Position numbers and translations under genes: made by a program
Notes under the pieces: model-generated
The model's input: only the letters and a program-made list of their open reading frames with translations
Told to the model about the DNA's origin: nothing
The model's database searches: none
From: Blasia pusilla
Lineage: Eukaryota
Assembly (NCBI GenBank): GCA_050084515.1
Contig: CM114271.1
Location: 6,262,001 to 6,326,000 of the forward strand
Direction: 5' to 3'
DNA: 64,000 nucleotides
Shown: positions 23,566 to 64,000 of the stretch, one piece after another
How positions within the stretch are numbered: the stretch's first letter is position 1
Layout: each line of letters opens with the position of its first letter

Positions 23566-23567
23566 AG

Positions 23568-23579
23568 TGGTATCAGAGC
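23568..23579 (+). promoter_or_regulatory. Primer-binding site complementary to the 3' end of initiator tRNA-Met
   Basis: TGGTATCAGAGC 2 nt after the 5' LTR. Confidence 0.9.
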
Positions 23580-23711
23580 TTATCCTTGGTGAGCGAGAAC
23601 TTGGGGTCGTGGGATCAGCCGGACGGTTGGGAAATTTCAAGGTAGCGGCTAGACTCGGACGCTCGAGGAGGGACGCAAGAAACGAGGAGGAGATCTGAGT
23701 GAGTTGGCTTG

Positions 23712-26700
23712 GAGATGGCGATCGAGGGAGAACAACCCAAGAAGCGCCGAATCAAGCGACGTGAACCGAGAGAGGAACCAATGCGGGACCGTGAAGCTAT
23801 AGAGGAGTCGGAGACTCCCGAAGAGTTGAACGCCAGTCGTGAGGACGTCCCAGTGGCGACTCCTTCCGCGGGGCCAGTGGGCCCAAACTCGAGGGAAAGG
23901 GCGAGTCGAGCCAGGCGTTGGACTTGTTGAAGGTGTTGGTGGAGCAGATGTCCCGGCAAAGCAAGCGGATTTCGAGTTAGAGGCCACTCGAAACCCGAAA
24001 AGGGCAAAAGATCTGCAAGACGAACCCGCCCACGCCATTTCGGAGTGGGGCGCCATGAAAGTGAAGGATTTCCTTACGGAGGCGAATCAGGCCCCATGAG
24101 GCGCAGAAGGTCGCTGAGCAGACAAGGTGACGGTAGCCGTTACTTTCTTAAGGATCATGCTCTACAATGGTGGACCGCTCAACAAGAGGAATATCTGGGC
24201 GGTGAGTCACCTCGAGTTGGGAGGAGTTCAAGGAGTTGATTGGGATCGGTTCACTCCGGAGTACCAAGGGTTGCGTGACACGGTGGAATGCGTGCGGATG
24301 CGGCAGAGTGGTTCCTTAAGCGCGTATGTGAGGGAGTTTAGTGCGAAACTGACTTCTAGTCCGAAGATGGATGAGCACGCGAAGAAGGCTATCTTCATTA
24401 GTGGACTCAAGCCGAGCGCTGAGAAGGCCCTTTACCGAATGCCGGCGTTGCCAGAGACTGCGCGGACCTTCTGAAGCTAGCGGAGCGGATTGGGGACGAT
24501 GAGGTCCAAACCCAGAAACCCTTCGAGTCAAAAGTTTTTTCGAAGAAGTCGAAAAATAAGGAGGCGTTCAAAAGAGGCTGGAGTGGGGGGGCCAAAGACG
24601 AACCAGGAGAGTAAATGCGCGCAAAGAAAACGAGTGGAACTTCATGCGCGGCGAAAGGAGGACAACACTTTCGAAGATAGGGAACGGCAAGGTCGTATGC
24701 TACAATGATGGCGAACCGGGACACCTGTCGAAAGGGTGTTCGAAACCAAAGGTTAGTAATGGGAGTATGATTGCGTTTGTTGCTAAGCATATGTTGGCGG
24801 GCGATATGGAGACGTCCCTTCAAGTCACCAAGAGGACGTACAATTTGGTGTACCTAAGATCCAAGATTGCTGATCGCGATGTGTTGTTGCTCGTGGATAC
24901 TGGTGCCGCACTCCTTCCTAAGCCGAGAATCGTGAAGGAACTGGGCGCGTCTACCTCTAAGGCGGGAGCCCATTTGAGTGGGATTTGCGGGGAGGCAAGT
25001 CTCATCGGACTTGATTTGGTCTTGGGTTTGTGATGAGGATGCGGGGTATTCGAGTTGAAGGAGAATTTCCTTTGTATGCGAAATGGACGGCATTGACGGA
25101 GTTTTGGGGAATACATTCCTAGATGCGTATGAGGTGGAGTTAAGACGCCGACCATTGAGGTTGAGCGTCTTGCTAAAAGGCAAACGGTTACAGGTGCGGT
25201 TGGTCCGTGAGGTTCCAACAAAGATGGAGTTGGTAAACTCGATCACAAGGAGGAGCATGACTGAGTTGGAGGATGGATTTCTCTGCTTGATGAGACAAGT
25301 GGAGAAGGCTACAAGCGATATCTGCAGAGATCGATCTGTTGCTTCAAGGGGAGTCGAGAACCACTTCAGGAAGTGGTCAAGGAGTTTGAGTATGTCTTGA
25401 CAAATGCTTCCGACTGAATTGCCGCCGCATAGAGCCGTAGATCATAAGATAGAGATCATACCCGGTTCCCAACCGCCTTCAAAAGCACCATATAGGTTGA
25501 ATCAGGAGGAACTTCTTGAGTTGAAAAAGCAGTTAAGTGAGCTCTTGGAAAAGGGTTACATTAGGACTAGCAAGTCACCTTATGGAGCACTGTTCTCTTT
25601 GTAAAGAAGAAGGATGGAAAGATGAGGTGTGTGTTGATTACCGTGCATCGAACAAAGTGACGGTTCGAACAATTATCCTCTTCCAAGGATAGATGATCTC
25701 TTTGATAGGTCGGTAGCGAGATATTTCAGTAGGATTGACTTGAAGTCGAGGATATTACGGTCGGATTGCCGGCGAGATGTGGAGAAGCTGCGTGCGGGGC
25801 GAGATACTGGTTCCTTTGAGTTTGTAGTGATGCCTTTCGGTCTATGTAACGCGCCTCCGACGTTCACCACATTGATGAACTCCATTTTTCACAAGGAAAT
25901 GGATGAGTATGTTATCATCTATATCGATGATATACTTATCTATTCGAAGTCACTAGAGGAGCACGTTCGACATGTGAGAGCGGTCTTGTCTAAGCTAAGG
26001 GCAAATCAGCTGTATGCGAATGTAGAGAAGAGCAAATTTGGTTTGAGTAAGATCAAATTCTTGGGTCACGTGGTCAGTGCAGATGGCGTCAATCCAGACA
26101 TGGAAAAGGTAAAGGCTATTTCCGAGTGGGAACCCCCATCCACTGTAAAGGGGATGAGGAGGTTCATAGGTGCGGTGCAATTTTATCGTACTTATGTGAA
26201 AAACTTTTCGGGAATTGTGAGACCTCTCACGGATTGGACGGCAAAGTTTGCCAACACGACTTGGACCCAGGAAGTTAATGAGGCATTCAACCGAGTGAAG
26301 CAGATTCTATCGCAGGAACCAGTGTTAAAGCTGCCGGAGTTTGACAAACCGTTCGAAGTGCATACCGATGCTAGTGATTTGTGATTTTGAGGAATGTTGG
26401 TGCAAGAAGGGAGACCGGTGGCATATGAGAGCAAGAAGCTTAGCGACACTGAAAGGAGATGGCCTACTCACGAGAAAGAGTTGTTCGCGGTGGTACATTG
26501 CTTGAGGAAGTGGCGGCATTATCTAGGGCTCCACAGGACTCGAGTATTCACCGATAATATATCACTCAAGTATTTTGAGACCCAGGATCGAGTGACACCG
26601 AAACAACTGCGGTGGCATGATACCTTGGCGCTGATGGATGTAGAGTTGATCCACAAGCCAGGTAAAGATAATGTGATTCGGATCGTTAAGTCGCAAGGAG

Positions 26701-28209
26701 GAAGACATGCCATCGGCGACCACAGGTCTTGAGAGCAATGTTCCCTAAGGAAACTGATGGAGAGAAGGATTAAGTAAAGGATATATGAAGGATGCTCAAG
26801 CGGGGAATACCTGAGGAAGTTGAAGCGAGGGGGTGAGAAGGTGGCCAACATAAGTTTGAGGCACCTGATTTACTAAGGTTCAAGCAGTAGGATCTATGTA
26901 GGGCAAGCGAGAATGCGAACCAAGGTGTTAGCGGAATGTCACGACGGACCCTTGGTAGAACATAAAGGAGAGAAATCTCGCTAGCTGTTACAGTCGAAGC
27001 GGTTCTTTTGGCCCAACATGAAGGAGGATGTTGCTCAATATGTGAAGACTGTGTGACGCCTTAGCGAATAGAGTCTCTTATGATAAGAAACAAGGCTTCT
27101 TTGCATCCCTTGCCCGATCCCCGAAGGACCCTTGCAAAGTGTGAGTATGGATTTCATCACGAGTCTTCCGAATCAGGGGGGATACAATGCTATCTTGGTG
27201 ATTGTTGATCGGTTTAGCAAGTTGGCGAGATTCGTGCGGCGGTGGATTCCTGAACGGCGTATCTGACGGCGCAACTATTCCTTGATAGCTGGTGGCGTCG
27301 CATGGTTTGCCGAGGAGCATTGTTTCAGATCGGGATCAAAGTTTACCGATGCTTTACGGAAGCACTTGTTCGAAGGTTTAAGACCAAGCTGAGTTTGATC
27401 GGCTTTCCACCCACGACCGGATGGACAGATGAAAAGGTAAACTCTATCGTGAATCAAGACTTGAGGAATTATGTCGAGTCTTGATCAACGCGATTGGGTC
27501 GTGTGGTGAGCATGGCGGAATCTTGCTACAACTCGACCAAGCATTCTCGCAACAGGAGAATCTCCGTTTCTTCCGGCAAATGGACGAGAGCCAGAAGGGC
27601 CTCTTGATCTAGCCCTTCGAAGGGTACTACATTGGCACGACCACGACAAGCGGCGAAGAAAGTTTGTTGGTAGAGATGCGAGAACGAGAAGAGAGCGAGG
27701 CGAAGTCTTGCAAAGGCTCAAATGAGGTACGTTAAGCATGCTAACAAGAGTCGGCGCCAAGTACGATTCCAAGTTGGAGAACAAGTGTGGTTGAGTGTGA
27801 AGAATCTCACTCTTCCGAAAGAGTTGTATCGGTCGTCTGCCAAGTATCTTTGGACCGTATGTGATTGTGGCAAACCCGTTTGAGGATGTGTATACGTTGA
27901 AATTGCCCGGACGAGTTCAAGATTCACCCGACCTTTCATGTGTCATTATTGAAGAAATACCTTCAAGATAATGGACGTTTCGAGCGGAGACAGGTGGTGA
28001 GACCGCACTCGATCATCGTAAATGAGGAGCCGGAGTTCGAGGTGGAGACCATCTTACGTTCGAGGCGTCGGGCCAACAAGTATGAATACTTGGTAAAATG
28101 GAAGGGCTACCATGTGAAGGAGGCGACTTGGATTGCGGAGGCGGATTTGGAACACGCGCAAGAATTGTTGCGTGACTTCAAGCGAACACAAGCGAAGCAC
28201 ATACGTTAG
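23712..28209 (+). pseudogene. Chromovirus gag-pol (gag, Zn knuckle, protease, RT, RNase H, integrase, chromodomain), frameshifted as given
   Basis: [78 protein letters not shown]; chromodomain EFEVETILRSRRRANKYEYLVKWKGYHVKEATW. Confidence 0.93.
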
Positions 28210-28888
28210 TAAGAGGAGAAGCTAGAGACATGACTTGTAATCAGTGGAATCTTGGGCCGAAGGCCGTTGTAACTAGGATATGCTAGTGTTGCAATAAAGG
28301 AGTGTATGGATTTGGAGATTCGATACCAATGTTGATTGCAATTTGTATGTGGTAGTGCATGGCTATGAGTCGTTCATCATAGACTTAGAATGTACGACAA
28401 GAGGACAGACAAGGAGTATTTGAGGTGAGAGCTCGTATGTGGATAAGCACCTAGAACAGGACCTTGTGTTGGATTACACTTGGGCTCGCCCTAGCGTCGG
28501 CGGGGCAAATGAAGTCTGTCTTGGGGCTTGGGGTGATCTTACTTGTGGCCACATAAGTAAACTTAGTGACGCGCCTAAGTCGAATACGAGAGCGACCCAA
28601 TAGTAGTACGATTTGTGGACCAGGTAAACAGGTGTGATGTTTACGATGTGAATGAGTCGAAAGAGTCTAAGGTTGCACACTTAGTTAGCTTATTTGAAAG
28701 GTTAGTTCCTTGGAACTAGTCCAGGCTTATTGAAGATGAGAGGCTAATAATTCTAAGTGGGGCAAAGCGACAACTAGAGACTAAGAGGAATTGCGGGTTA
28801 GCCACGAGAACGCAATTCAATGTCAAGGGGTAGGCTGCCCAGGAGACTTGACATAATAAAAGTTTGCGTTGATGAGGGCATCAACCTC

Positions 28889-28903
28889 TAAAAGAGGGGT
28901 GAG
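28889..28903 (+). promoter_or_regulatory. Polypurine tract
   Basis: aaaagaggggtgag immediately before the TG of the 3' LTR. Confidence 0.75.
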
Positions 28904-29903
28904 TGTCGCGACCCTCATGACCAAACAAGTGCCAAGCGGAATATCGGAACATTAGCGGGCTCACGCTAAGATGGTTTGCGCGTTGGAGTTGTCTCAAAGA
29001 GGAGACAAGAGGCGAGGCGGCGAGAAGTCGCGTTTCAGATGTGATGGTCGCAACTCAGAAACCTGGACCAAACGCGGAATGAGACTTGAAAGAAGTCGAG
29101 TCTAGGAAGTGGGTTGCCAAAGGAAAGATCCGGATTTGGAACGCCACTTGCGTTTGAGAGTTTCCGACTGTATTTATGGCCATAACTTTTAGCGCCAAGA
29201 TGCGTTTGGAGCAAATAAGAGTGCGTTGGAAATCTTATGAAGAGCCGGTTCAAACACACCAAAGATCGCTGCAAACGCATAAGCAGCGGCCGAGATACGA
29301 CCCGAAAACGACTGTAAGTGGAGTCGGGTTGAGGGCCACAATGAAGGGCCCGAACCTCTTTTCCCAAAGGGGAGGGGTTATTGGAGAACCCCAGAAGTAC
29401 TAGTAAGGGGGAAGGTCTCCGAGAGTGCTTGGAACCCAAACCCCACTTTGGGCCGCCGCGGGGCGCTCAAGGGCATGGAACAGGAACGCGAGTTTGGGCG
29501 TTGGGTTGGAAAACCTGCACCAAGTCCATTGAGGCGATTTTAGACATCCCTCTTGGATTTCACGCCGCGACTCAATTACTTGGGTCTCGGTTCGGAACTC
29601 ACACGAGGACCGTTGAACAGTTGGGATCGCTAGGCGTGCAAGTGCCGTTTCAGATCCCTGGACTAACCAGGAAGTCTGTTCCAAGTCTTGAAGGACTTGC
29701 CATGTGTTGGGAGCTAGGAACTAAGGAAGGTTGAGCTTGATGAGACGCCGAGTTTAGGACTCGGTGGGTTGGAACGCCGGTTGGCCAAACCCGACTAACG
29801 AGAGTGCGTGTTTGGGTGCGGATCGGCGATGAGTTCGTGACCTACTGAACGCACGCTTCCGCAACACTAAAGATTGACGTTCAAGGAGAGTAGGGGCGGG
29901 ACA
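28904..29903 (+). repeat. 3' LTR of the chromovirus
   Basis: Copy of 22564-23565, followed by the TSD ATATG. Confidence 0.95.
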
Positions 29904-30819
29904 ATATGTGATGGCCAATCCCAATCTATTTTCCAAAAACTACATACATAAAAAATAATTTTGTAGAAGTGTATATGAAATTGGTGTAAATTTTCATGTG
30001 CATCCTCATTACTAACAAATGGCCATAGCGGTTATGCTAGCAGGGACCTTCAAATGCCTCTTTTTGCGGGCCAAGAGCCATACATTCAACTTTTCCAATT
30101 AGAAGTCTTTAAGAAAAACCCCAAAAGTGCACTTTCTTTGTAGAAGGATTTTTTTAATGCCCCCTACTAGAAGTGAGGAAAACAATATTACTCTCTCATG
30201 ATGGCTAATAGTTTTATTTCCATGGGAGCAAATTTGATGCAACAAAATGTTTAGGACTAAACTTGAGATATGTTGTTAGTCTCATATGGATTTAATGCTT
30301 TCCTTCTTGTGGAATTAATGGATTGGATTTAGTTTAATTCTATGTGCACTTGATATAGTCTTCCGTCTCAAGTGTACCGAGCGTAAGTGCAATCCGTGCT
30401 ATAGTGTAAGGAGCCCATGTCATCTTTTAAAAAATGGAATGAGAGTAGTTTGCAGATTTCTTGCAGTTTTTATAAGTGTTTCCAATTGTCCACAACACAA
30501 CAAAATCCTAAGTGCAAGCCATCTATGAGTGTTGTGTTCACCAATCTAATAGTGTATACACTTGGAATATGTACTTATTCAAAAGTGCATATAGAGAGAA
30601 TCGGAAACTACCGATAACTAAACATTAAGTTTTCTTAGTGTAATGCTTGTAGTTATCTATTTTGCGTGCGAATTGAGGGGGGTATGTATAGTCGATATGG
30701 GGGGGAGGGGGGATGTTGACCCATTATCAAAGAGAAAAGTGGTTGATGGGCATTCTTGAGGAGTGATTGCTGTAAAATTTTGTTGGGAAGGTATATTTTT
30801 GGAGGGGAGGAAATTCATC

Positions 30820-49419: not shown

Positions 49420-49497
<78 letters not shown>
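49420..49497. repeat. (CT)n microsatellite
   Basis: Seen directly. Confidence 0.95.
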
Positions 49498-51401: not shown

Positions 51402-51723
51402 TGTCATGAACCAAATGTCAAAATAGCGCGGCTCTTGATCCCACGAGCACTCCCATGAGCCATGAAGCAAGGAACACGGTCCCCAACCTGCACCAAACAT
51501 CGAGCAACCAGCGAGCTCCCCCATGAAGCTCTCTCACCCTCTCATTCTCTCTTTGTAAAATAAGGTGAAATCTCTCTTACAATATCTCATATGTACACTC
51601 TCACATGTCTCTCTCAATATCAAACCAAAACCACTCTCCTAATGAGAGGCTTGGGTTACACTCACAAGGCAAGGGACCATAGCTCTGCCGCCTCGTGTTA
51701 AGAGGCTCAACAAAGAGAGAATG

Positions 51724-51810
<87 letters not shown>

Positions 51811-52127
51811 TGAGGTATGCCCCTCCCCTCTCCCAAGCTCTTTCCATGGTAACCTATGCTCCCAAGTCACCTCCCTGGCTCTTGACCTCATGTAGGAGGT
51901 CAAGGGCCTCTTCCTAAAATAGAAAGTTGACCATATACTCAAAATGGTACTGACCTTAAATAGTAAGTTCCTCAATATGGCTCCAAATGAGCCGAAACGA
52001 AGAGAAAACCTGATCTCTTAGGTTTCCTGGGGCCTCAATAAGTCATCCTCCACCTCTTGATCCTGTCCTCCACTACTTGCAAAGACGCTCTACTAGATCT
52101 CACCGATCTTTCCTAAAAGACGTGACA
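51402..52127 (-). repeat. LTR-like unit (TGTCATG...CGTGACA) containing an expanded (CT)n tract
   Basis: Inverted termini; 51580-51875 is clearly similar to 62915-63143 and, inverted, to 62255-62350. (CT)n at 51726-51808. Confidence 0.55.
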
Positions 52128-52175: not shown

Positions 52176-52396
<221 letters not shown>

Positions 52397-55199
52397 TATC
52401 TCTACCTACGATGACATACATCTCTCGGACGCAAGAAGAGCAAGAAGGCCGGGTGCTCATGTGGCCCCATCGTTAGTCGTCTTCTTATCATCTATGTCAC
52501 AGATATAAATCGGAATATAGAACTACCTACGCTATAAACATCTAGGACACATCCATCGTCCCTTAGGAACCCTAGTGATAGGCGGCATCAAACATGCCAT
52601 ATGCCATCCTCTCGAACATCCATCATAGACTAGCATAATGGCTCCACCGCGGGCAGAACCACACAACATACATCGCAAGCCTGTAACCATCACTCGCTTA
52701 ATCAGGCAACATCAAGAGCTTAAGTATTGGAGGGTGAAGTTTCCTCACTCGCTTTGTCAAGAAATGCAACCAACTCTATCCACTTGGAGAACTGCTCAAC
52801 CATCACCAACACATAACAACTATGGAGCTCCATCAAAGATAAAGGCCTTGCAAAATCCAACTTCATCTTTAACCTAAACCCATGATCAAAAGTGGATGCA
52901 ACTGTGGAGTTGGACCATTGAATGATGCTCGGACTTGATCACACATCATGCATCTGGCAACAAATTTTCGAACGTCAGTCTACATGCCTCGCCACCAATA
53001 CTGAATCTGGAGCAAGTTGTACGTTTGCTTCACTCCAAAATGACCCAACTCCTCGTGGGCATGACGCACCAAACGTGCTCTCTACAAAGGATAAGGCACT
53101 ACACGCACTCTACCATCCTCCCACACTTGCAACACATGTGTCCCCTCCCACCGAAACCATCTGTCTCGCTGTAGGATCCGATCCGGATCTCTAGCATCCA
53201 CTCTGCTCGCAACACTGCCAATACGCAAGTACTCCTAGACTATTCCATCATCGTGAATATCTCGGCCACATGTCGTCTCCTCACCGACCTCTAGATCTAA
53301 GGACTCTCCATCAGACCTCGCCACCGAAGTCTCAATAATTTGGCTCTCCATAGCCAAGAAGCCCAAATAGCCTGACGCATGCCATCCTGGCACCAACTTC
53401 TCATCACTCTTTCCATGCCATCGAGCTCCGATCGCATCTCGTAGACTCAAGCATGGGTTACAACTCAAACCATCTGCATCTAGGTTGAGCATCCCAGGTC
53501 TATGTACCACCTGGAAGTCATACTCCTGCAACAAAAGAGCCCACCTCGCAAGCTTCCCTATAAGCTTGTGGGACTCCATCAACCACTTAAGTGACTGATG
53601 ATCAGTAATGATGGTAAAGGGATTGCCGAATAGATAATATGTGAAATGTGCGACAGCCTACACTGCAGCCAAACACTCACCCTTATACGAGCTATACTTC
53701 GCCTCTACAGTGTTGTTTGAGTGACTTGCGTAAGCACCACAAACTCTCTACCATCATCGTCATGTTGGGTGAGCACGGCTCCAAGCCCCAACATGCTCCA
53801 ATCGACATGCAATTGGAAAGGACGCCCCGTGATCGGTCTCCTCAATATTGGCGCAGACGTCAATCTGTCCTTGAGCTGCTGAAATGCTCTCTCCTGCTCA
53901 TCCCCCCACTGCCACTCTTGATCCACCTTCGTCATTAAGGTTAGCGGCTTTGCAATCAAACTCAAACCCTTGACGTACCGTCAATAGAAGATCGCCAATC
54001 CCATGAATGCACAAACTCGACTTACATTTGTAGGGCGTGGAATGCGTGAAATACCCTCTATCTTCGTCTACTGCGCACAAAGGCCCCTTGGGTATATCGT
54101 ATAACTCAAGTACTCAATCAAGTAGTTGAAGAACTTGCACTTGCCTGGATGTAGCTTCAGCCCATGTTACTGCAATCATCGGAACGCCTCCTCTAGATGT
54201 CACTGATGCTCCTCAACCGTGGCGCTAAAGACTACGATGTCATCAATATAACACCTACCAAAATCCAGACCTGTCAAGATCCTATCCATAATACTCTGAA
54301 ACTCAATCGAGGCGTTCTTTAATCCAAATGGTAAGAACCGCCACTGATACAAATAATCCTTCCCCTGAGGATCGATGCCATCTTCTGCGTGTCCTCCAAT
54401 CTAATAGACGGCGGATGATATAAGGCTCAAAGATCTAACGAACTGAAGACCTTGCATATCCAATAGCATCAAAGATCTCCTCAGGGGTGGGCATGGCATA
54501 CTTATCGGACTTTGTCTGCACACATCCGCCTATCCGTCCAATTGCCATGCACATCCTTCTTGGCGGGCATGACAATGGCAGATGTATACTCTGCATGCGA
54601 CATCTCCACTAGTCGTGCTCCAACCAAGTCCTGGCTCCTACTCTGAATCAGAGCCCTCTCCATATCACTATACGTGTAGGGTCGTGGAAAGATCGGCATG
54701 TCACTAGACAACCCAATGCGGATCCCTGGACCCTTTAGCATACCCAAATCATTCATACTAAATGCAAAACAACTCTTATAACTCCTCTGGAACTGATGTA
54801 TCCAGCGCCGCTATTCGCGTGTCAACTTAGAGCCCATATCTGGTTCCTAAGTCTCCATCGTGACTATGGCAAGACTCTTCGGCGCGGGTGTAGGTGGTTG
54901 CTATGATACAACCCTGTCTCGGATAACCGAACTCGATTGCTCTCCTACAGCCAACTGCAAAATTGGATCTCCATGTGCAATACCCGACACCACGCTCGAT
55001 GTTGTGGCTACCATCTCCTGACGTACCTGCAAAACATCCCAAGAAGTCCAAAGGTGTCTCTCCTGATCACCCCTGGTCTGTCGATCTCCTCGGGTCTCGC
55101 CCCCAACCACTACCTCAATCGTCTTGATAGGCATGGGGCTCACCACCGCAACAGTTGTGATCTGTCGCATCCGCAAACGACGCTGCTCAACTACTCCTA

Positions 55200-56140
55200 A
55201 GCTGAAAATCCATGTCAAGCAATTCACGTCCATTGCCTCACCCAAGACATGACGTCGTGATAGCGATGGTACTGCCGTCACTCCTGTGGGGAATCGCATT
55301 GCTCGCTCTCGCTCATCGGCATTGGGTTCCACCAACCTTGGTACCTCGTCATCTCATACCAAGCTAGGTCCGGCCTCTTTGAATGCATAGGAAACGGGAA
55401 AACTCACAAATATGGGAAAGGCTCCCCGTGGCATGCCAATCCTCTTGACCACAGTTAACGGAAATAGATCATCGTGCCTCACTGCCTTTGATCGATTTGG
55501 ATCCATAATGGAATCCACCAACAAATTGGAGGGGCGCTCCACTCTTGCATACACCCTCCGTAAAACCTCATGTGGGACCAAGTTGGTCCACCAAAGATGC
55601 GGGCGGTGTGCGCTAGAACCTACACTCGCCGCATCCAACAATACTGTTGGGCCGATCCATGCGCGCACATGATGTGCACTCGTCACCACGCAGGACCTTG
55701 AATCGCCCAAAATCGGCACATTCTCCAGAAGAAATAGTGGCGAACCAGGCTAACGCTCTTGTAAATGTCGCAAGATTCGCATCATCTCCCCAAATAACCT
55801 TAACCAAGTGTCAATGACCCGCTACCTCGTCCGTCCAACACTCAATTGGCCCTAACACGGCCAACCAGCAATGACCAAGTCTATGGTCCCTACCCGGTCC
55901 GAGTCTTTCGCCCCCAACAATCAAATGTCCCTCGGTAGGAAACTATGGTCACCCTGGATGGCGGATGCAGACAACAAGTCGAGAAAACCGGGGTGTAACT
56001 GCGCCACATGGTGAAGTGAAGCACGCCTCGCAACATCATCAATCTCCAGATACAAGTATTGTTGCACGCGTACTCCAGCCTACAAAACAACAACTAAACC
56101 AGTGCTAATCCCGCCAAAGAGATCTAGCACGCGAATACCC
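55200..56140 (-). pseudogene. Retrotransposon-borne DNA (cytosine-5) methyltransferase domain, DNMT3-like, with premature stops
   Basis: One frame: motif I VLDLFGGISTG (56098-56130), II YLYLEID (56038-56058), III PRDI*LL, IV IDLVIAGWPC*G (55855-55884), VI FLLENV (55717-55734), VIII AHRPHLWWTNL (55579-55611), IX ERERAMRFPTG (55282-55314), X RRHVLGEAMDV (55225-55257). Confidence 0.9.
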
Positions 56141-57279
56141 TCCTCAAGAATGCACCACACAATCAGGATGGTGTCCAAAGGGGTCATAGTAGCACTCCTT
56201 GCTACCTCGGGTTCCTCTAACCCATCACGCTCTGGTGCAAACTTCTCGCTCCATGCGGTCTGCATATGCTCATAGGCTAAGTGGCGAAGCTCCTTAGTCC
56301 AGCTCCAAAGCGGCACCTCTCCTCCACGGAATGATACGGCTACCATGACACTCCTCTATATAGAAATGCTAGGAACGAAAGTGTCCTATGCGTGGATATG
56401 TCCTTCAATCAAATCACTAGGCCAAATGATGGTGCTCCTAAATGATGCCAAGGTCGCCATCTCTCCTAGTCGTCGCTCGATCACTCCATCCGTGAATCGA
56501 ACGGTAATAAACAAGGTCGTCCATCCCCGGACTGCCATCCTGGTCTGTAGGATGCTGACTCCTCCTAGTAGTTGAGGGAAAACCCCATCATGTACAATAC
56601 TCCTCCACCAACCAAGACGTCGTAGGACTCTACATCGGTGACTATCGCCTTGGCTCGCACTGCCGACTCATCTGTAGGATGTCCCGGGCGAATCCTCACC
56701 ACCACCTCTTATCGGGTGATATACTGTGTGGTACTTGCTCCACCCAAGGATGTATGTATCCAGAATGGACAACGATCCATATCGGCTCTCGTCAAGCCCA
56801 ATCCTCTAAATGACGCTTTCCCCAACATCAAGGGTTGCGCTCGTGAATCCAACAAGACGCATTGCGGACTAAAATCTCTACCTCTAGGAGTCACCAACTA
56901 GAAGACCTCTCCCCGGTTAACCAGCAACATGACACCAGGAGAAGCCATGGCATGCTCTATCGCGGGTCTAGCGGGCATCTCCGCCATCCTAGCACCCGCA
57001 CCCTGCCATGAATCTGTGGTGGATGGCCTGAGCATTCGCTCCAAGGGCAGGTCCATCACCTCCTCTACAATCACCTCAAAACGTGATGCACGAACTCCAA
57101 CTCCACGCTCACATAGTGTAACGGCCAACCGAAACACCTTGGCGGGAGTACCTCCCAATCGGAAGCAGAAAATAGCAGAGCACTGTACACCATGATGGCC
57201 GCCCCCAACATTGTACTCGAAACATGCCCCTCTTGAGCATCAGCAATAGGAGTTTTCGTACTTGTTTCTCCCATCTCCC

Positions 57280-58392
57280 TCAATAGCAGTTGTAGTCTTT
57301 TATTGCTTTGTCTGATTACCATGCACATTTTGCAAACTTCCACGCTGTAGGTCATGGCATTTATCAGGGTTTCAATTTTTGGTTTTCCTATCGCACCATT
57401 TTTCATCATTCCCCTTAGTTACATCTACGCTTCAATACAAACCGGCTGTTGCAACAAGCTCATTCTGCACACTACCATCAACTAGTATATTTCCGTCATT
57501 CAAAAACCGGCTCTTGAGGCCAGCTGCCTCTACGCACTACCATCGGACTCTATTTTTCCTTTGTTGCAAACTTTCAAATGCTCCAAAATTTTAAATTCCC
57601 GTCCCATATTGGTTACAGAAATATATGGAGCCAACTACATCCCTCTTTATTCACCCTACTCACCACAAATATATTTTGGATCTAAAGTAATATCCTACCT
57701 TACCTTAACTAAGTCTTAACTGCTGAACACTTTAAATTTGGATTATGCACTTTATGTTATTATGACTCCTTCTCCATCTCACATAAATATACCTGCCGCA
57801 TACTTGTTTCAGATCAAACTCCATTATATTTTATACACTTTAAATTTGGATTGCTTTCATTAAAACCCCTACAAGTATTTTTCTTCAAACGAAAATATTG
57901 TTTCTTTCTTCTTCTTTTTTCTATATTCTTACGTCTTCTACAACTATGTATCAATTACTTTCTTCTCCCCTTAAAAGTTTAGGAAAATGAGAAGACACAA
58001 AAAAGAGAAGAAAAACTAAAAAGGGTGGTGGTGGTGATCTCGAGGTTCGTCTCCCTCCACCTCCGGAAAGCCCTACAAGCTCTCCGAGCTAACTAGGCTA
58101 TGGTTGCGGGCTAACTGGCTCCGGTTGAGACTACACACGGCGACGCGGTTAGGGCTTTCTTCTTTGGACATCGCCTGCAATGATCGGGGAGATCCGGGGT
58201 TACAAGTAAGGCTAGCCGGTTAAATCTGAGAATTTCCGATTAATTTTAAAGCTGCCTACGAAAAACCGGTTGGATTTGAGGACGCTCTTTGTATTTCGTA
58301 TCTGAAAACCGGTTCATAAACCGGAATTTCCGTTTCCGATTTACCATTCCCGGTAATGTATCGGGTCCCACGGAAAAACTCCCCGAACCCTG
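57280..58392 (-). mobile_element. hAT-like DNA transposon end fragment
   Basis: Terminus CAGGGTTCG on the - strand (cgaaccctg, 58384-58392) with clustered AAACCGG/CCGGT subterminal motifs (58120-58360). The other end was not found; it abuts the truncated Gypsy-DNMT element. Confidence 0.4.
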
Positions 58393-59093
58393 ATCGCCTG
58401 TCCTCATTTGTTTCGCTTTTGCGAGATGACCTGTATGCGATGCGCTACCCGATCTAGCAGATTTCCACAGCAGCAGATGAAGTTTCTTGCGGAGCCAGCG
58501 AGTGCGTGCAGGAATGCGTGGCGTGCGCGAATTCTAGATCTAGCTATGGCAGCGATGGATGATTAGACTCCAAAATGTAGGTACCTGTGTACTCGTACAT
58601 TAGGAGCACGATTTGTAGGCCCGCGGATGGCGCATATTCCGTTCGAGGATCGATTCTCGAATCTCGAGGGTTCCAGAGCTGTCGGTGTGGCGTATTTTTC
58701 CGTTTTCGCGAGCCGATTCCTCACCGAACCGTCATAGTGGGAACATTCTCGGTATCGCATCGCATGCAGATTATCTCGGACCTGGGATTGCCCCGTGAAC
58801 AGGGCCCTCTCTCCTCCCCAACATGTCAGCCTCAACGCGTGCAATCGCTCCAAGTTCGGTCAACTGTCCAATCCGAGAGGAAATCGTCGCAGTGGGAACA
58901 TTCTCGTCCGCCTTTCTGTGCAGCGCGAAGGGGCTCCAATTTTGCACTGCTATCGTTCACGGGAGACACGCGGAGAAATTCTTCCAGAGATTCAAACGGC
59001 GACGCGTCCTGGCCGTGTACAGCAGCTAGCTAGCTTCCGTAGCTCATCACAGACGTCTCGACTAACAGTCGAAACTCGGACAGGAAAGGGAGA

Positions 59094-60177
59094 TTGCTTG
59101 TAGAGATTCCCTTCGAGTTGAGGCCAGAGCCGTTCTCCCCACTTTCTCCTCCTTAGTTACCTCCGGTCAGTCTCAGCTCCAATCTTCCTTGATGGAAGCC
59201 CACTTTAAGGCAGTTTTTAGAGGCACTATGTCTGACGGGAATATCCCCATGGAGGTTAGGGCCCGTATTCGCTCTTGCTCCGGAAAGGGGGAAGGCTCAA
59301 GGGTAGGGGCGCGCCCCCTTCTCCAGGCTTTCCGTATCGCACCACTTACCTATACCACAGCGATGCGGTTCCGCTTGGGCCTCCCCCAACCATCGGTGGT
59401 TGGTTGGACACACTGCGAGTGTCGCCGGAGCCTGGATCCACTTGGTGTGCATTTGGCACGCTGTCCAGTTGGGGGTGAGAGGATAGCCACTCACGATGCA
59501 GTGCGGGATATCATGTTCACTATTGCTCGAGAGCGTGGCTTCCATGTGCAGAGAGAGAGGCACTACTCCATGCAGGATTCCCTCATTCGTGCCGATCTCT
59601 ACATGACACGTGAGGTTGAGGTGGTTTTGGCGGACGTGGTAGTCACAGATCCTACGCGGGAGGCGGTCGAGCCCAAGTGGTGGCCCAGGCGAATGCTACA
59701 AGGAGCGGCGGCGGCGGCGGCGGCGAAGAAGACACATATCTCTGATCGACTACACGAGGGACACATCTTCATCCCCCGGCCATAGAGATGTATGGGGCTA
59801 TGGGGAGAGGTTCGACTTCGTTCTTACGGATCGCGCCCATCATCTCCACTCGAGAAATGGGTTGTCCTTAGCTCTGCGTCTCAGTATTGTAGGCGGCGAG
59901 TCTCCATAGCGTTGGCGTGCCAGGCTAATGGGATTTTGCGGCGGGCTCAGTGTGGGAGGCTGGCGCTAGAGGCCCACTTAGTAGTAGTCATAGCTCTCTT
60001 GTTGTTCTTGATATTGTCTCTGTTGTTGGTGAGTTTAGTCGTTAGGGGGAATGCCCCCTTCTTCCTTTTCTGGTCCTGTTGTGGCCTTCAGGTTTTGACT
60101 CTTTGAGTCCCCCTCTTTTGTACTTCCGATGGGTTTTCCATCACTCGTTTTTATCGAAGTGCATCTTCGTTTTCAGT
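59094..60177 (+). mobile_element. 5'-truncated CRE-like non-LTR retrotransposon (CCHC Zn knuckle + restriction-like endonuclease) with TSD
   Basis: ORF with MRFRLGLP, CEC..LDPLGVHLARC, HDAVRD, RADL..LADVVVTDP, FIP/AIEMYG. Flanked by gacaggaaagggaga (59079-59093) and gactggaaagggaga (60178-60192). Confidence 0.8.
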
Positions 60178-60818
60178 GACTGGAAAGGGAGAAAGGACGG
60201 GGGGGGAGAAGAAATTAAAGCCGCGATTGCTTTCAGAGGAAAGCATCAACATCGATGCACGCGCAGACGGTTTTTCCAAAGGTTAACCAGTTTTCCACTC
60301 CTATTTGATTTACTGGCACCATTTTTCCACATCTTTTCCTATTCCTTCCCCAACGCGTGTTATTCGGACATGTTTTCAAAGCATATTCTAAGTGTCCACT
60401 TTTAAGCTCGGGTTCTGTTTGCTACCGCGGTCACTTTCTTTTTCTTCTTCAAAGGCATTCCCGGCTTTTTTTTTTAGTTAGAAAGCCTTCTGCGGTGCTT
60501 TTTAGTCGGTAATGTTGAGTGCTCCTTCATTTTGCTAATTCTTCTCTTATTGGCATTTGGTAGTTTCGTCCAATAAGGTCCAATGAGATCATTTGGTTTT
60601 TTTAAAAGAATCATTTGAAATTGATTGAAAATGGCACTTGAAAAAAAGAATCATTTGAATTTGACTGAAAATGGCACCTAAAAATTGTGAAAATTATTTA
60701 TGGGAGGTAATATAAACCCGTGCGATGTACTAGTTTTTCTTTAAACCTCGGAAATCATTTGGACCTAAAATCCAAACCTTTTGGGCTAGAGGTTCTAACA
60801 ACCTCTTGTACAAGGGTG

Positions 60819-60973
60819 CTAGGCGATGCCCGTGTGATGCACGGATGAAATCGGCCCCATCCCCCTTAACTCCTGTTAAACCCGCCACATGTCAGCATGG
60901 GAAGGGTCTAAAATGCATGTGTCATATAGAGAAAGCCCCTGCCTGAAACCCCATGCTCTTTTAATAGTATAGA
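60819..60973 (-). mobile_element. Mini-Helitron (155 bp)
   Basis: CTAG at 60819-60822, hairpin ccgtgtgatgcacgg, 5' end taatagtataga|t at 60962-60974. Confidence 0.7.
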
Positions 60974-60974
60974 T

Positions 60975-61500
60975 TGCATTGCAATGAGTGCTTTTGTACC
61001 AAAGATTTCACTTGAGAGACATAACCAAATAATCCAAGCCTTCTACCATTTTCTTCTTCATGAACTTGATTTTTTTCCGCCATCAAATAACCCGAACCTT
61101 GGTGCCAAAGATTAAGAGATTTCCGTCCTTCCAACTTTGACAGGTAAGAGGAATCTTGCTCTTCTACCACAACAATTCCCCACACGATCACCGTGTGCCA
61201 TTACCTTAACATTCAATGTCTAAGGTTTTTCTTGTTGTATCCAACAAACTTTTGAAGTGAAAAAACAATCTCATGAGCAGAGTCTGTAATTTTTGCCGAT
61301 AACTCAAATGCTATAATGCATTGGTATTGGTGAAGAAGTTCAGATTTCCTTGTTTCTTGAAAATTGAGGATGTTGATTCCCTTTTATCAATATCTCCCTC
61401 ATTTGTACATGCAACATAGAGCTTTACTTCATCTTCGATGACATTTCCTATATCTTTGCATACCTTATTTTAGATCGATTGTTAGTAGTATGGTATGCCT
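60975..61500 (-). mobile_element. Possible Ty1/Copia relic (GAG-pre-integrase-like)
   Basis: LNLWHQGSGYL followed by KKKMVEGL resembles LWHxRLGH...MVxGL; very degenerate. Confidence 0.3.
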
Positions 61501-62199
61501 AGTCTTGTTCAACAGTTTGTAGCTAAATGCAATAGTCCCTAATAGAGTGGAAGGGTTATTTTATACTTTGACACCAAACTAACATCCTTGATCGATCATA
61601 GGGTTATGATAGCAATTGATCTTAAACTTTAAAAGACCTTTACCAAAAATCAAAATGCCATGTAGGTGACTGTTTGTCTTGGTGGAGGAATTTTTTTTGT
61701 TAGCAAGATCAAGCAAGGACCGAATTAAGAATTTCTTGATTGAATACCAAGTCACTTTGGCGCTTCAAGAAATTTGGGTGGTGATTATTGTAACATCTTA
61801 GTAAGCTGACATGTAGAGTTATCCTATGTCATTGGCATGGAAGGTCAATGGGTTATTCGGACATATCTTAGTCCCAAGATGGCGGATGAGATTTGAGCTA
61901 GGTCCATTGCATCGGAATTTTTATGTAGAATAATTCCCCTCTTTGAGTCGTTTTAGGCCAAGGGTATAAGAGAGAAATCGATGACTTTCTCGACCATCTT
62001 TCTTATGTTGAACCTTTTATCACATCTTTGAGCATGGATCGACATGTATCCATAAAGCACCTTCGAGGAGATCGAAAGATAGCCTCACGAGGTCCAAGAT
62101 AATCTGCTTAAGCCTCAATTACCTTGAGAGAGCGAGTTTCCCCTTCATTTTGGCTCATTTGGAGCTATATTGAGGAACTTTCTATTTCACATAAGTTCC

Positions 62200-63143
62200 T
62201 ATAATGATCATATTTGACTTTTCTTTGATCCCCTGTAGTAGGTCAAAAGCCAAGAAGAGAGGGAAGGAGATATACCCAAAGAGGGGATCGGAGCTTGAAA
62301 GCTCATTCTCTCTTCTTTGAACCTTTTGGCATGAGGCGGCGGAGCTATGATCCTCCTTCGTCGCAAACAAAAAAGTCTATAGTGCCCACGCTAGCAAGGA
62401 CCTAGGAAGCGAGTCATGATCATGAGTCCAAGAAGGGAAGATCGAGAGTTGCAAAAGCCGCAAGAAACCGCCACCAAGCCATTTTGATGGATAGTTAATC
62501 AAACACCAGTATGTGGGTCAGACACTACATTTGGGTTCAAGGCCAAAATCAAGATGTGGCTCGATTCCAAAAAATTATTTGCATTGTGAACCGTTTTGAC
62601 TTCGATTTTACATGAGAAAGATGGGTGTATGGTCTTGGTGTACATGTGTGAGTGCATTTGTGTGTGCATTTGTATGTGTGCGTGTGGATGTACCCATGTG
62701 TGTTGTGTAGATGTGAGCAGAAATATGGATTGTATAACAATGTGTATGCACGCAACATCATACAAAGATGTCGTGCGCATACACATCGTTGTCATCAAAC
62801 ACATACACAAACACGCACGATCCCATGTTTACTCATGGCATCCAAACAACGACACAAGAAGTACCAAAATATCTCTAATAAAATAAGATCCAATCTCTCT
62901 CACAACACCATAATTCTCATATGTGTGCACTCTCACATGTCTCTCTCAATGTCAAACCAAACCCACTCTCCTAATGAGAGGTTTGGGTTACACACACAAG
63001 GCAAGCAAGACCATAGCTCCGCCGGCTCATGCCAAGAGGTTCAACAAAGAGAGAATGAGCCCTCAAGCTCTCTCTCCTTGAGGTATATCCCTCCCCTCTC
63101 CCAAACTCTCTCCATGGTAACCTATGCTCCCAAGTCACCTCCC
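62200..63143. repeat. Two related LTR-like fragments arranged tail-to-tail
   Basis: The + copy ends caatgtgtatgcacgcaaca (62757). The - copy end tgtcgtgcgcatacacatcg begins at 62769 and is the same 20-mer as at 52130. Both share the internal block gctcattctctct..ttgaacct.ttggcatgag..ggcggagctatg. Confidence 0.6.
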
Positions 63144-64000
63144 AAGTGTGACTATTGTCATAGGTATGGTCATACATGCGCCACGTATTTCATTTTATAT
63201 CCTGAGTTAACGTCCGCACCGAGGGCCAAAGAGGGCACCAGAGCGAGTAGCCGGTCCAGGTGGTCCCGTTGGGGGACGAGGAGCTCGAGTTACTTGATAG
63301 GGTAGTGGAGCTGCCCGTGGAGGAGGTAGAGTCCCACCATCTAGACACGTTGAGGGAGATGTCAGACGTGAGGCTAGGATGGTTGCTCACATACAAGAGC
63401 TACAGGAGCAGATTGCCGTTGTGGCATTGAGGTTACCCAATGCTGGATCTGTGGCATCGACATCATATGGAGCAACCTGAGATACGGAGGATCGTGGTTG
63501 GATGTGCAAGGTTGCCCAGATGAAGGCATCCGCAGTTGTGATGCGTGGAGCAACCGTAGAGTTGGATCCAAAGCAAGGAGAAGCCATGAAACAGACCAGG
63601 CTTCCTCAGTCTTTCACGTTGTCCGAGGCGATGAGGACCCCATTGATGGGTCTTGATCAGAGTTCTTGGAGAGTTGGTGATGTTGTTGGTGTGTGGGCAC
63701 GGATCGCAATGGGAGAAGCGAGTGCAAAGACTCCTATTCCTCATGCTCATTAGGAGCATGTGCTGAGCACGTTGTTCGGGGCGGCCACCGTTGTGTACAG
63801 CGCTCCTTTACTTTCAGCTTTCGATGTTATGACGTAAGGAGATACATCCGCCGAGGTTTTTTGGCTGGCCGCTATGCTATGTGATCGTGGAGTTGGAGTT
63901 CCTGCATCACGTTCAGAGGTGATTGCAGAGGAGGTGATGGAGATGCCCTCGGAGGTGATGCTCGGGCCATCCACGTCAGATTCATGGCAGGCTGCGGCTG
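63144..64000 (+). mobile_element. Second member of the Gypsy-DNMT family (gag Zn knuckle to pre-protease region), runs off the window
   Basis: KCDYCHRYGHT Zn knuckle. 63705-64000 aligns by eye to the reverse complement of 56995-57275 (e.g. cgtggagttggagtt..tgcatcacgtt..gaggtgattg.agaggaggtgatgga; ggccatccac..cagattcatggcag). Confidence 0.8.

Follow-up and report, generated by a model that had tools for sequence, protein, structure and literature searches.

A decayed Ty3/Gypsy-type retrotransposon copy with a DNMT3-like cytosine methyltransferase domain in a probable liverwort genome

Retrotransposons that carry a DNA methyltransferase have been described from dinoflagellates and from one charophyte alga (PMC5890265). 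According to the text of that paper, the two dinoflagellate elements, SymbioDIRS-Dnmt3 and SymbioLINE-Dnmt of Symbiodinium, also bear C5 methyltransferases, and the SymbioDIRS enzymes are of the Dnmt3 type and methylate CG de novo in yeast; they belong, however, to the DIRS (tyrosine recombinase) and LINE classes, live in another host kingdom and represent an independent acquisition. The charophyte case is a Gypsy-Dnmt3 element of the streptophyte alga Klebsormidium nitens (de Mendoza 2018, PMC5890265). Its repeats are arranged A-coding-B-A-B (Fig. 4c legend of the same paper), the assay of its enzyme in yeast is given there as inconclusive and the Klebsormidium methylome as not unusual. Later papers, in the passages that deal with such elements, refer to 'streptophytes' in general.

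The window analysed here is a stretch of 64,000 nucleotides, whose minus strand holds at 51.6–57.3 kb a decayed, 5′-truncated copy of a Ty3/Gypsy-type element (copy 1). The original prediction had placed in it a methyltransferase lying between a protease and a reverse transcriptase, RNase H and integrase, and the peptide strings from which this was read were recovered by translating 56400–54800 of the minus strand in one frame. Our best explanation, to which we give a probability of about 85%, is that copy 1 is a decayed copy of the Gypsy-Dnmt3 kind, from a family whose intact members would encode gag, protease, a DNMT3-like C5 methyltransferase, an in-frame stop, reverse transcriptase (RT), RNase H, integrase and a PHD finger in that order, with the possible roles discussed below. 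The features of the window are as follows.

57144–57274, minus strand: last recognisable gag remnant, where the family similarity of copy 1 stops
56502–57143, minus strand: retropepsin-type protease region and linker to the methyltransferase, in a frame that differs from that of the methyltransferase
55171–56163, minus strand: predicted DNMT3-like C5 cytosine methyltransferase domain, motifs I–X in canonical order; a pseudogene with 6 in-frame stops and 0 frameshifts
54901–54903, minus strand: conserved in-frame stop, TAG followed by CAACCA, closing the frame of gag, protease and methyltransferase; the RT continues in the same frame
54095–54846, minus strand: RT, with changes of frame near 54.45–54.52 kb
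53520–53908, minus strand: RNase H of Gypsy type, with a change of frame at 53735
52729–53261, minus strand: integrase, comprising the H2C2 zinc domain and a portion of the DDE core; the frame changes near 52.86 kb
52538–52672, minus strand: PHD finger following the integrase, at the C-terminus of pol (PF00628, E = 2.4e-09, 37.5 bits; cut-off 24)
51556–52018, minus strand: terminal repeat segments at the 3′ end of copy 1, broken by a (CT)n run, with ends that are not sharply defined
62879–63143, no strand assigned: high-copy terminal-repeat segment of the same family, adjoining a rearrangement breakpoint
63147–64000, plus strand: gag part of a second, separate copy of the family (copy 2), in opposite orientation and running off the window

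The protease call rests on homology to relatives, since the Pfam search matched neither a protease nor a gag model in the window copies. The region 57143–56502 aligns by tblastn at 49.8% identity with residues 543–754 of the Marchantia protein P0158, and Asp_protease_2 is matched by the relatives P0036 and P0168. Downstream of the methyltransferase, Pfam located RVT_1 (54370–54095, E = 1.2e-17), the RNase H profiles RT_RNaseH_2 (E = 5.7e-15) and RT_RNaseH (E = 1.3e-20) and Integrase_H2C2 (53081–52926, E = 1.5e-15); RVT_1, RT_RNaseH and Integrase_H2C2 together span 54370–52926, so that the position proposed for the methyltransferase between protease and RT is borne out. The integrase parts of P0012 and P0036 also align here by tblastn, and a PHD finger lies at the equivalent place in the relatives P0012, P0023, P0029, L035 and L052. 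In the RT region the tblastn pieces of P0160 are spread over three frames. A single-base gap of copy 1 near 54451 is absent from most reads, and another, at 53734, is private to copy 1, with 503 of 705 DNA reads differing there. Similarity to the family ends at the gag remnant and copy 1 is therefore 5′-truncated; DNA read depth falls from ~1900 through ~100 to ~1 past 57108–57491, the gag-side end of the copy. With its in-frame stops, three frameshifts and missing 5′ end, copy 1 is dead, as the original prediction had said, and makes no enzyme itself.

Copy 2 was found with residues 334–589 of P0158 (tblastn), and the 289 bases shared by the two copies (56996–57274 of copy 1, 63997–63709 of copy 2) are 78.5% identical by blastn. 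No Pfam match was obtained in the three minus-strand frames of 57.4–63.3 kb. The repeat segments at 51556–52018 match 62879–63143 at 84–95% and, inverted, 62127–62187 at 85% (blastn); the depth bin 62868–63251 reaches ~3050 in DNA reads, 327 of which carry a joint 62187|63142 between opposite strands. A clean LTR pair for copy 1 was considered and rejected, the repeats at 51.6 and 62.9 kb being short and this joint marking a rearrangement. The neighbouring BPS1-like gene is 72% identical to its match in Marchantia and 69% to that in Calypogeia, with the next matches at 49% or less; a land plant, probably a liverwort, is thus the most likely host, in agreement with the earlier view.

For the domain searches, stops in the 56400–54800 translation were read as X. 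This frame runs on without a frameshift but is broken by 11 in-frame stops: six fall within the methyltransferase domain (56163–55171), and another (54903–54901) is the stop conserved in the family. Relatives carry Gln or Trp at the positions of four of the six domain stops, including the Gln that follows the catalytic Pro-Cys. The DNA methylase profile PF00145 matches the window copy significantly and in part, over motifs IV–VI only (E = 6.9e-05, 22.9 bits, just above the cut-off of 22), and matches intact relatives at 35–49 bits. When the PDB chains were searched with phmmer, the catalytic domains of DNMT3A scored best (E = 8e-11), followed by DNMT3C and DNMT3B, with DRM2 at only 0.025. The DNMT3A alignment is colinear from motif I to motif X, and FxGxG, PC, ENV, AHRxxxxWxNL and ERxxxFP follow one another in canonical, non-permuted order; the window copy itself reads LFGGISTG, GWPC and then a stop, and LLENVP. 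Among the relatives the catalytic Cys is kept in 100% of A-type rows (n = 77) and 89% of B-type rows (n = 19), while the ENV Glu is invariant in the two groups (100%; n = 77 and n = 19). Thus the canonical motif order and the catalytic PC and ENV named in the original prediction are all seen in this alignment.

A profile of the family scored 83 bits with DNMT3A, ~75 with DNMT3C and DNMT3B, 70.6 with tobacco DRM, 58 with AtDRM2, 44 with M.HhaI and 27 with DNMT2 among the PDB chains, and no DNMT1 or CMT chain was found at E ≤ 0.01. In the AF2 model the blocks of the domain have pLDDT values mostly of 71–94 (lowest block 45), and the best 50 rows of the Foldseek search are all DNMT3A or DNMT3B (best E = 4.7e-14, target-normalised TM up to 0.79). 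The animal enzymes DNMT3A and DNMT3B are therefore the best match in both sequence and fold, with the same motif order and with AHRxxxxWxNL and ERxxxFP in common, but the identity in structural alignments is only ~20–24%; the element has GWPCQ where DNMT3A has GSPCN, is embedded in a polyprotein and is not preceded by PWWP or ADD. No Pfam match to either of these domains was obtained upstream, where the protease sits instead, and in the text of PMC12344493 such companion domains are also absent from protist and algal DNMT3s and hence not universal. The plant DRM enzymes come second by profile. Their motifs are permuted, whereas those of the element are colinear with DNMT3A, and the DRM2 alignments join only the N-terminal half of the query to the C-terminal part of the DRM2 chain. 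The homology lies far beyond chance, because 1254 library proteins match at E ≤ 0.001 (106 at E ≤ 1e-30, the top 150 matches all being of element type) and Marchantia proteins match the domain at E = 1e-112 with 56% identity. We take the domain, from its sequence and modelled fold, to be a complete, non-permuted C5 methyltransferase that is DNMT3-like, its closeness to DNMT3 being ranked against solved structures only, and we regard this identity, together with its place in a Ty3/Gypsy element, as highly probable.

The same domain is carried by 14 gene models of Marchantia polymorpha (14 of the 18 matches of one protein search) and by proteins of Calypogeia, the moss Sphagnum and Closterium, as well as by 73 metagenome loci found in a scan with an alignment of closer relatives. 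Wherever both are seen in the branch of the window copy, the methyltransferase precedes the RT. Marchantia proteins P0160 and P0167 run from methyltransferase through RT to RNase H, and locus L011 has three ORFs in the same frame, namely a CCHC gag with protease, the methyltransferase, and RT with RNase H and integrase; family members thus keep the domain between protease and RT as in copy 1, and the Gypsy order of pol is intact in L011 and P0036. A second architecture, RT-RNaseH-DNMT-integrase-PHD, occurs in elements including some from Scenedesmus. One branch, with a support of 98 in FastTree (147 rows) and 95 in the quick IQ-TREE run (51 rows), separates 19 of 19 rows with the order PR-DNMT(-RT) from 77 of 77 with RT-DNMT-INT, and the window copy clusters with 11 Marchantia rows and P0156 at a support of 100 in both trees. 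These data indicate that the domain is not a one-off capture and point to a family found widely among liverworts, which also has relatives in Closterium and in a moss.

Among the related loci, L032 and L035 show split A-coding-B-A-B repeats in place of plain LTRs, and L002 agrees with this arrangement; the window copy has only short, rearranged repeat pieces. As far as KnitGypsy-Dnmt3 is described in the text of PMC5890265, it and the family here have in common a streptophyte Gypsy-type pol ORF, a non-rearranged Dnmt3-like domain with its key residues kept, repeats of the A-coding-B-A-B form, seen here in related loci, many copies and signs of purifying selection; the host is a charophyte alga in the one case and a land plant, probably a liverwort, in the other. 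That text mentions neither a PHD finger nor an in-frame stop and does not say where in the Klebsormidium element the domain lies, and a Klebsormidium protein was not among the named matches of the protein searches or of the clusters of 30 proteins. We suggest that the family belongs to the same kind as KnitGypsy-Dnmt3, a kinship by architecture and repeat structure and not by tree. The original prediction saw here a lineage of methyltransferase-bearing retrotransposons in a land plant; its architecture and, most probably, its host stand, but its novelty was overrated, the Gypsy-Dnmt3 kind being already known from Klebsormidium, and what is added is the extension to land plants. We found no paper in the open literature that names a liverwort or bryophyte Gypsy-DNMT3, although supplementary tables of PMC5890265 and PMC12344493 may list copies, and the accessible text of PMC6453930, PMC11982613, PMC9516144 and PMC8616336 has no mention of one.

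Reads of the source organism at least 85% alike, from DNA and from three RNA runs, were mapped to the window. The DNA depth is 650–2300 over 52.5–57.1 kb and 0–8, mostly near 1, in the low-copy bins (57.5–57.9, 58.6–59.0 and 60.2–62.1 kb), which puts the family reads several hundred-fold above the low-copy bins; copy numbers are rough, with a single-copy baseline of only ~1×. The RNA depth is 16–132 in the three runs, with a strand bias of at least 10:1 in the apparent sense direction, and this bias flips over the opposite copy 2 and over a plus-strand ORF. The family is therefore present in high copy and transcribed in the source organism.

At the boundary between the frame of gag, protease and methyltransferase and that of the RT, the window copy has TAG CAACCA, and L011 has exactly the same sequence at its ORF boundary. 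A stop followed by CAACCN occupies the same codon in 24 of 30 junctions in the loci, and 2 of the 30 have a Tyr codon there; in 23 of the 24 loci with the stop the sequence is CAACCC, so that the last base is not A, and 7 have TAA. Three proteins from Marchantia and the metagenomes, P0156, P0157 and P0158, terminate where the alignment places this stop. The type I readthrough motif known from tobamoviruses is given in the text of PMC5382211 as UAG CARYYA. The context of the window stop fits this motif, as does that of L011, each at an ORF boundary, although the viral setting is an RNA virus and ours a retrotransposon and most of the loci here have CAACCC and some TAA; readthrough is suggested by sequence context alone. 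In intact members, synthesis of RT, RNase H, integrase and PHD finger would depend entirely on readthrough of the leaky UAG, and the methyltransferase would be the C-terminal part of an abundant product of gag, protease and methyltransferase.

On our main reading, the intact enzyme would be catalytically active as a de novo cytosine-5 methyltransferase; carried along with the particle, it would methylate new cDNA or insertions of the element, and possibly nearby host DNA. Chromoviruses are Gypsy elements with a chromodomain after the integrase. There, too, a chromatin reader is fused to the integrase C-terminus; in the family here it is a PHD finger, and a DNA methyltransferase is present in addition. 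The PHD finger might read histone tails and so pick insertion sites, as chromodomains do in chromoviruses. We consider catalytic activity in intact copies somewhat more probable than its loss, while self-methylation as the selected role can be put forward only tentatively.

The alternative that survives best, although we think it unlikely, is that the methyltransferase is a carried-along remnant, captured once long ago, catalytically useless and retained only through its position within an ORF that has to remain open. The pairwise dN/dS of mostly dead metagenome copies is 0.53 for the methyltransferase (299 pairs), only moderately below 1 as a remnant might show, but it is 0.46 for the RT (152 pairs) and 0.66 for the protease region (318 pairs), so that in the same copies the methyltransferase appears constrained about as much as the RT and more than the protease region. 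Values of ~0.5 suggest weak constraint; the pairs are non-independent because many loci are near-copies, and pairs with the window copy fell outside the usable dS range and were left out. Stops are carried by 29 of 34 methyltransferase stretches and 5 of the 34 are stop-free. The DNA depth over the methyltransferase bins (655–946) is less than half that over the RT (1467–2293), which would also suit a remnant; it may reflect faster divergence or some copies without the domain, and no abundant joint skipping the methyltransferase was found among the 15 best-supported of 98 joints in the reads. Two further points would suit a remnant: the window copy has His in place of the second Arg of RxR in motif VIII, and the Klebsormidium assay was inconclusive (PMC5890265). 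Against it, the two architectures, though deeply diverged, and several lineages of plants and algae retain the catalytic Cys, ENV, the RxR arginines and the glycines that bind SAM. Moreover, a useless insert of 330 residues would be expected to be lost in some lineages, and in the FastTree set no typed row lacks the methyltransferase within its clade.

Less likely again is that the enzyme acts mainly on the host, either by de novo methylation in trans that shapes the liverwort methylome or through a copy domesticated as a host gene. The abundance and transcription of the family, the place of the methyltransferase in the abundant upstream product ahead of the stop and the many copies annotated as genes in Marchantia would all suit such a role, but parts of gag, protease or RT are present in those Marchantia models that were examined, which therefore look like element ORFs rather than domesticated genes, and the methylome of Klebsormidium is reported as not unusual (PMC5890265). 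Chance juxtaposition or an assembly artefact, with a host DNMT3 pseudogene inside an unrelated Gypsy element, might be suspected at a locus that is pieced together from broken repeats and has been rearranged at least once, but it is ruled out for practical purposes by the same order and junction sequences in Marchantia proteins and dozens of independent contigs and by the several hundred-fold read depth that continues unbroken from protease through methyltransferase to RT.

It is rare for a retrotransposon to encode the very class of enzyme by which its host silences it, and the Gypsy-Dnmt3 kind is now seen in land plants, at several hundred-fold depth and transcribed. In Marchantia polymorpha, a model that is genetically tractable, close relatives appear in the annotation as ordinary 'hypothetical proteins', and this opens experiments that are out of reach in Klebsormidium and Symbiodinium, on the methylated context, the marking of the element's own new copies, the protection or silencing of the element by such marks and the host methylome. 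The stop with its plant-virus-like context and the PHD finger are testable handles on protein ratios and chromatin choice. For annotation, counts of DNMTs in bryophyte genomes will be inflated by element copies. In its widest form, which we hold to be doubtful, the finding would mean that an ancient green-lineage retrotransposon carries both a 'writer' (DNMT3-like) and a 'reader' (PHD), makes the writer in Gag-like amounts in streptophytes, ahead of a leaky UAG of the tobamovirus type, is transcribed and perhaps mobile in liverworts including Marchantia, and has an enzyme with a measurable share in the de novo methylation of host DNA or new insertions. If true, element-encoded DNA methylation would be directly testable in a tractable land plant.

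One-frame minus-strand translation of window 56400–54800, with X placed at the 11 stops, gave a 533-residue peptide (P0001) in which the peptide strings of the original prediction were recovered. The Pfam C-5 methylase model matches this decayed Ty3/Gypsy copy (copy 1) at E 6.9e-05, in line with the C5-methyltransferase identity first proposed, scoring 22.9 bits for a cut-off of 22 and covering motifs IV–VI only. Against 1.84 billion representative proteins there were 1254 matches at E ≤ 0.001 and 106 at E ≤ 1e-30, and judged from these alignments the presence of a methyltransferase in the element is real and far above chance. When PDB chains were searched with the window domain, 33 matched at E ≤ 1, 29 of them DNMT3A, 3B or 3C (best E 8e-11) and the remaining four DRM2 (E 0.025). 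A family profile built from 16 element-type domains scored 83 bits with DNMT3A, ~75 with DNMT3C/3B, 70.6 with tobacco DRM, 58 with AtDRM2, 44 with M.HhaI and 27 with DNMT2; no DNMT1 or chromomethylase chain was listed at E ≤ 0.01. The AlphaFold2 model of the read-through peptide has a mean pLDDT of 65.2 (domain blocks mostly 71–94, lowest 45), and DNMT3A or DNMT3B chains alone were found by Foldseek among the best 50 PDB rows listed (best E 4.7e-14, target-normalised TM up to 0.79). By both sequence score and fold, the nearest solved structures are animal DNMT3A/3B. The domain is colinear with DNMT3A from the FxGxG loop through PC and ENV to AHRxxxxWxNL, as expected of the non-permuted order that had been claimed, and the ERxxxFP/motif X region aligned as a second, weak piece. 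On this alignment the predicted motif order is canonical, unlike the permuted order of DRM. No PWWP or ADD domain was found by Pfam in front of the methyltransferase (DNMT), that place being occupied by the protease.

Positions of copy 1 and of neighbouring family and repeat features in the window
57143–56502, minus: protease region, 49.8% identity to residues 543–754 of the Marchantia polymorpha protein P0158
56163–55171, minus: methyltransferase domain, from translation and alignment to relatives
54903–54901, minus: stop codon at the DNMT–RT boundary
54846–54095, minus: RT (RVT_1, E 1.2e-17)
53908–53520, minus: RNase H (E 5.7e-15 and 1.3e-20)
53261–52729, minus: integrase (Integrase_H2C2, E 1.5e-15)
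52672–52538, minus: PHD finger (PF00628, E 2.4e-09)
63147 to window end, plus: copy 2, gag part of a separate family copy
59028–60179, plus: another transcribed repeat, from read depth, within 57.4–62.9 kb

The methyltransferase thus lies where it had been placed, with the protease region 5′ and the RT, RNase H and integrase matches 3′ on the minus strand. The protease region is defined by its relative, no Pfam protease model having matched the window copy, and the PHD finger is an addition to the original prediction. At the 3′ end of copy 1, or close to it, are perfect dinucleotide microsatellites: (AC)108 at 52177–52393, (CT)41 at 51726–51808 and (CT)39 at 49420–49497.

The best library matches to the window domain were proteins of Calypogeia fissa (54%) and Marchantia (56%). 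A search for longer proteins gave 18 matches, comprising 14 Marchantia polymorpha gene models (46–57% identity), one from Sphagnum fallax (39%) and three unnamed. Two of the Marchantia proteins, P0160 and P0167, run DNMT, RT, RNase H as in the window, and two others, P0157 and P0158, carry ~900 residues of gag and protease ahead of the DNMT. Domain order was typed in 181 proteins with a DNMT match: the DNMT follows RT (order A, RT-RNaseH-DNMT-integrase-PHD) in 62 and probably in a further 20, precedes it as in the window (order B, PR-DNMT-RT) in 15 and probably in nine more, and stands by itself in 75. After 34 rows that were too short or near-identical had been dropped, an unrooted FastTree of the 147 kept was divided by one branch (support 98) into 42 rows, including all 19 B-type rows, and 105, including all 77 A-type rows. 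A quick unrooted IQ-TREE of 51 rows (41 B-side, 10 A-side) gave the same split at 95 and placed the window in a 13-member clade (support 100) whose other members are 11 Marchantia rows and P0156, a metagenome protein. Each domain placement therefore marks one side of the DNMT tree. Among other named rows, Closterium (three strains) falls on the B side and a Scenedesmus 'pol' on the A side. The domain is present in Marchantia, Calypogeia, Sphagnum and Closterium relatives, as befits the lineage originally suggested, and is therefore not a one-off capture.

A metagenome scan found 73 loci encoding relatives. One of these, L011, is near-intact, with three same-frame ORFs for gag (CCHC knuckle) and protease, DNMT (PF00145, E 7.6e-13) and RT-RNaseH-integrase, the last reaching the contig end. 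A second in-frame TAG (3192–3194) lies between protease and DNMT in this otherwise open element; it may be a private mutation, the Marchantia proteins reading straight through there. Of 34 DNMT stretches compared, a set that takes in the window's own, five are stop-free. Pairwise NG86 estimates (stops dropped, dS 0.05–1.5) gave median dN/dS of 0.53 (DNMT, 299 pairs), 0.46 (RT, 152 pairs) and 0.66 (protease region, 318 pairs); with mostly dead copies, many of them near-duplicates, these values are inflated and non-independent. The DNMT is constrained about as much as RT, which is supported by the kept catalytic columns: all 77 A-type rows and 89% of the 19 B-type rows retain the Cys, and every row of both types has the ENV Glu. 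Motif IV, usually Pro-Cys-Gln, is Glu-Cys-Gln in 55% of the 77 A-type rows (e.g. P0012, P0028, P0173), its Cys being invariant in that group.

P0156, P0157 and P0158 share one aligned end, ~100 residues past motif X, where the DNA has a stop codon in frame and then CAA CCN (TAG CAACCA in the window and L011, TAA CAACCC in the metagenome locus L002). Stop plus CAACCN is present in 24 of the 30 DNMT–RT junctions recognised in related loci (17 TAG, 7 TAA); two (L008 and L040) have a Tyr codon at the stop position and four have other sequence, identical in three of them because a single sequence recurs. Tyr is often the residue inserted when UAG is read through in plants. RT continues in the same frame past the conserved stop. 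Tobamoviruses have a type I readthrough signal, described as UAG then CARYYA (PMC5382211); TAG CAACCA fits it exactly, whereas CAACCC differs in the last base. The codon context suggests that gag-PR-DNMT would be the main product and that occasional readthrough of the stop would yield RT-RNaseH-integrase-PHD.

Two further loci, L032 and L035, have the repeat layout A–coding–B–A–B, where A is ~340 bp and B ~115 bp (L032: A 6560–6903 and 15318–15660, B 15206–15320 and 15660–15774; L035: A 1328–1664 and 11904–12240, B 11785–11900 and 12238–12353), and L002 agrees as far as its end. This layout is spelled out in the Fig. 1 legend of de Mendoza et al. (PMC5890265), and by its Fig. 4c legend their element has the same unusual arrangement.

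Raw reads sharing one species label, from a single DNA run and three RNA runs, were placed on 52500–64000 at 85% likeness. In the low-copy bins at 57.5–57.9, 58.6–59.0 and 60.2–62.1 kb, DNA depth (both directions summed) is 0–8 and for the most part close to 1, compared with 1467–2293 across RT-RNaseH-integrase, 655–946 in three bins wholly within the DNMT domain, ~1930 on the protease and ~3050 on the terminal-repeat bin. Counted in copy-equivalents, the family therefore numbers several hundred, most or many of them with the DNMT region. Faster divergence, or a share of copies without a DNMT, may explain why depth is lower there; among the best 15 of 98 joints, none that is abundant skips the DNMT. 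RNA depth on copy 1 is 16–132, the first mate on the plus strand being at least 10-fold over the other, and this bias flips on copy 2 and on the plus-strand repeat at 59–60 kb, so that under the usual stranded-library convention all three give sense transcripts. Most reads are <95% alike to the window and hence come from other copies. An RNA-only joint, 53700–54741, leaves out 1040 bases, has four additional letters at the junction and lacks canonical intron ends; it is present in all three RNA runs (5, 12 and 5 reads), absent from the DNA run, and could stem from a deletion derivative that is expressed from another genomic site.

Copy 1 itself is dead, as predicted, with six stops in the methyltransferase, frame changes in RT, RNase H and integrase, and a lost 5′ end. 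Four of the six stops replace Gln or Trp of relatives, including the residue after the catalytic Pro-Cys, and the three single-base gaps behind the frame changes are missing from most family reads. Likeness to the family stops near 57.27 kb, which leaves copy 1 without its 5′ end and without most of gag. Relative to the read majority, copy 1 has A/T replacing G/C at 231+224 sites and the reverse at 108+108 (~2×). Deamination of methylated cytosines is expected to leave such an excess, and the bias may be its trace. Copy 2 is 78.5% identical to copy 1 over their shared stretch. Between them, the minus frames of 57.4–62.9 kb gave no Pfam matches. The repeat at 59028–60179 (DNA depth ~280–410; RNA depth up to ~200, opposite mate direction) contains a 239-residue ORF (59066–59785) without a Pfam match and is probably an unrelated element inserted beside the truncated copy 1. 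A joint between opposite strands, 62187|63142, occurs in 327 DNA reads, which indicates that most genomic copies of the repeat are arranged differently and that the window locus is rearranged, having an inversion or similar event between oppositely oriented copies. With only short repeats at 51.6 and 62.9 kb in this rearranged locus, no clean LTR pair could be defined for copy 1.

Elsewhere in the window, a 395-residue BPS1/DUF241-type gene (1858–3048, minus; PF03087/PF05633 in its relatives) is a probable host gene, its protein matching Marchantia polymorpha at 72%, Calypogeia fissa at 69% and others at ≤49% (44% for a Ginkgo model). By this similarity, the likeliest source of the window is a liverwort other than those two species. 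A separate Gypsy element, lacking a DNMT, occupies 22563–29904 (RT ~25.4–26.7 kb, plus); its ~1 kb LTRs (22563–23566 and 28903–29904) are 98.9% identical, and the element seems far younger than copy 1. The ORF fragment 13850–14389 (minus) matches Helitron_like_N weakly (E 3.7e-05; 24.5 bits, under the cut-off of 28.9), and the adjoining ORF 14478–15242 has no Pfam match.

The identity of the domains, their order and conservation, and the family's abundance and transcription are observed. Beyond this, we propose that in intact members the abundant gag-PR-DNMT product ends in a de novo C5 methyltransferase that is active, which would put the enzyme where cDNA is made. Its substrate could be newly made element DNA or the DNA around insertions, and the PHD finger on the integrase might read histone tails for targeting. 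De novo CG methylation in yeast is reported for Symbiodinium DIRS enzymes, and for the Klebsormidium Gypsy enzyme no detectable activity, a result that its authors call inconclusive (PMC5890265). The domain might instead be an inert passenger without use to the element, or the enzyme might act mainly on the host. Chance juxtaposition of a methyltransferase and a Gypsy element is refuted by the same order in P0160, P0167 and L011, the recurring junctions and the high family read depth.

This kind of element is already known: a Gypsy element with a Dnmt3 domain was described in Klebsormidium (de Mendoza et al. 2018, PMC5890265), and a 2025 paper and a 2026 preprint place such elements 'in streptophytes'. 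No liverwort, moss or other land-plant example is named in the literature searched; supplements or subscription papers may contain one. The present family adds a land-plant host, including occurrence in the model plant Marchantia, as well as the PHD finger, the conserved context of the leaky stop and a correspondence between the domain's two placements and the DNMT tree.
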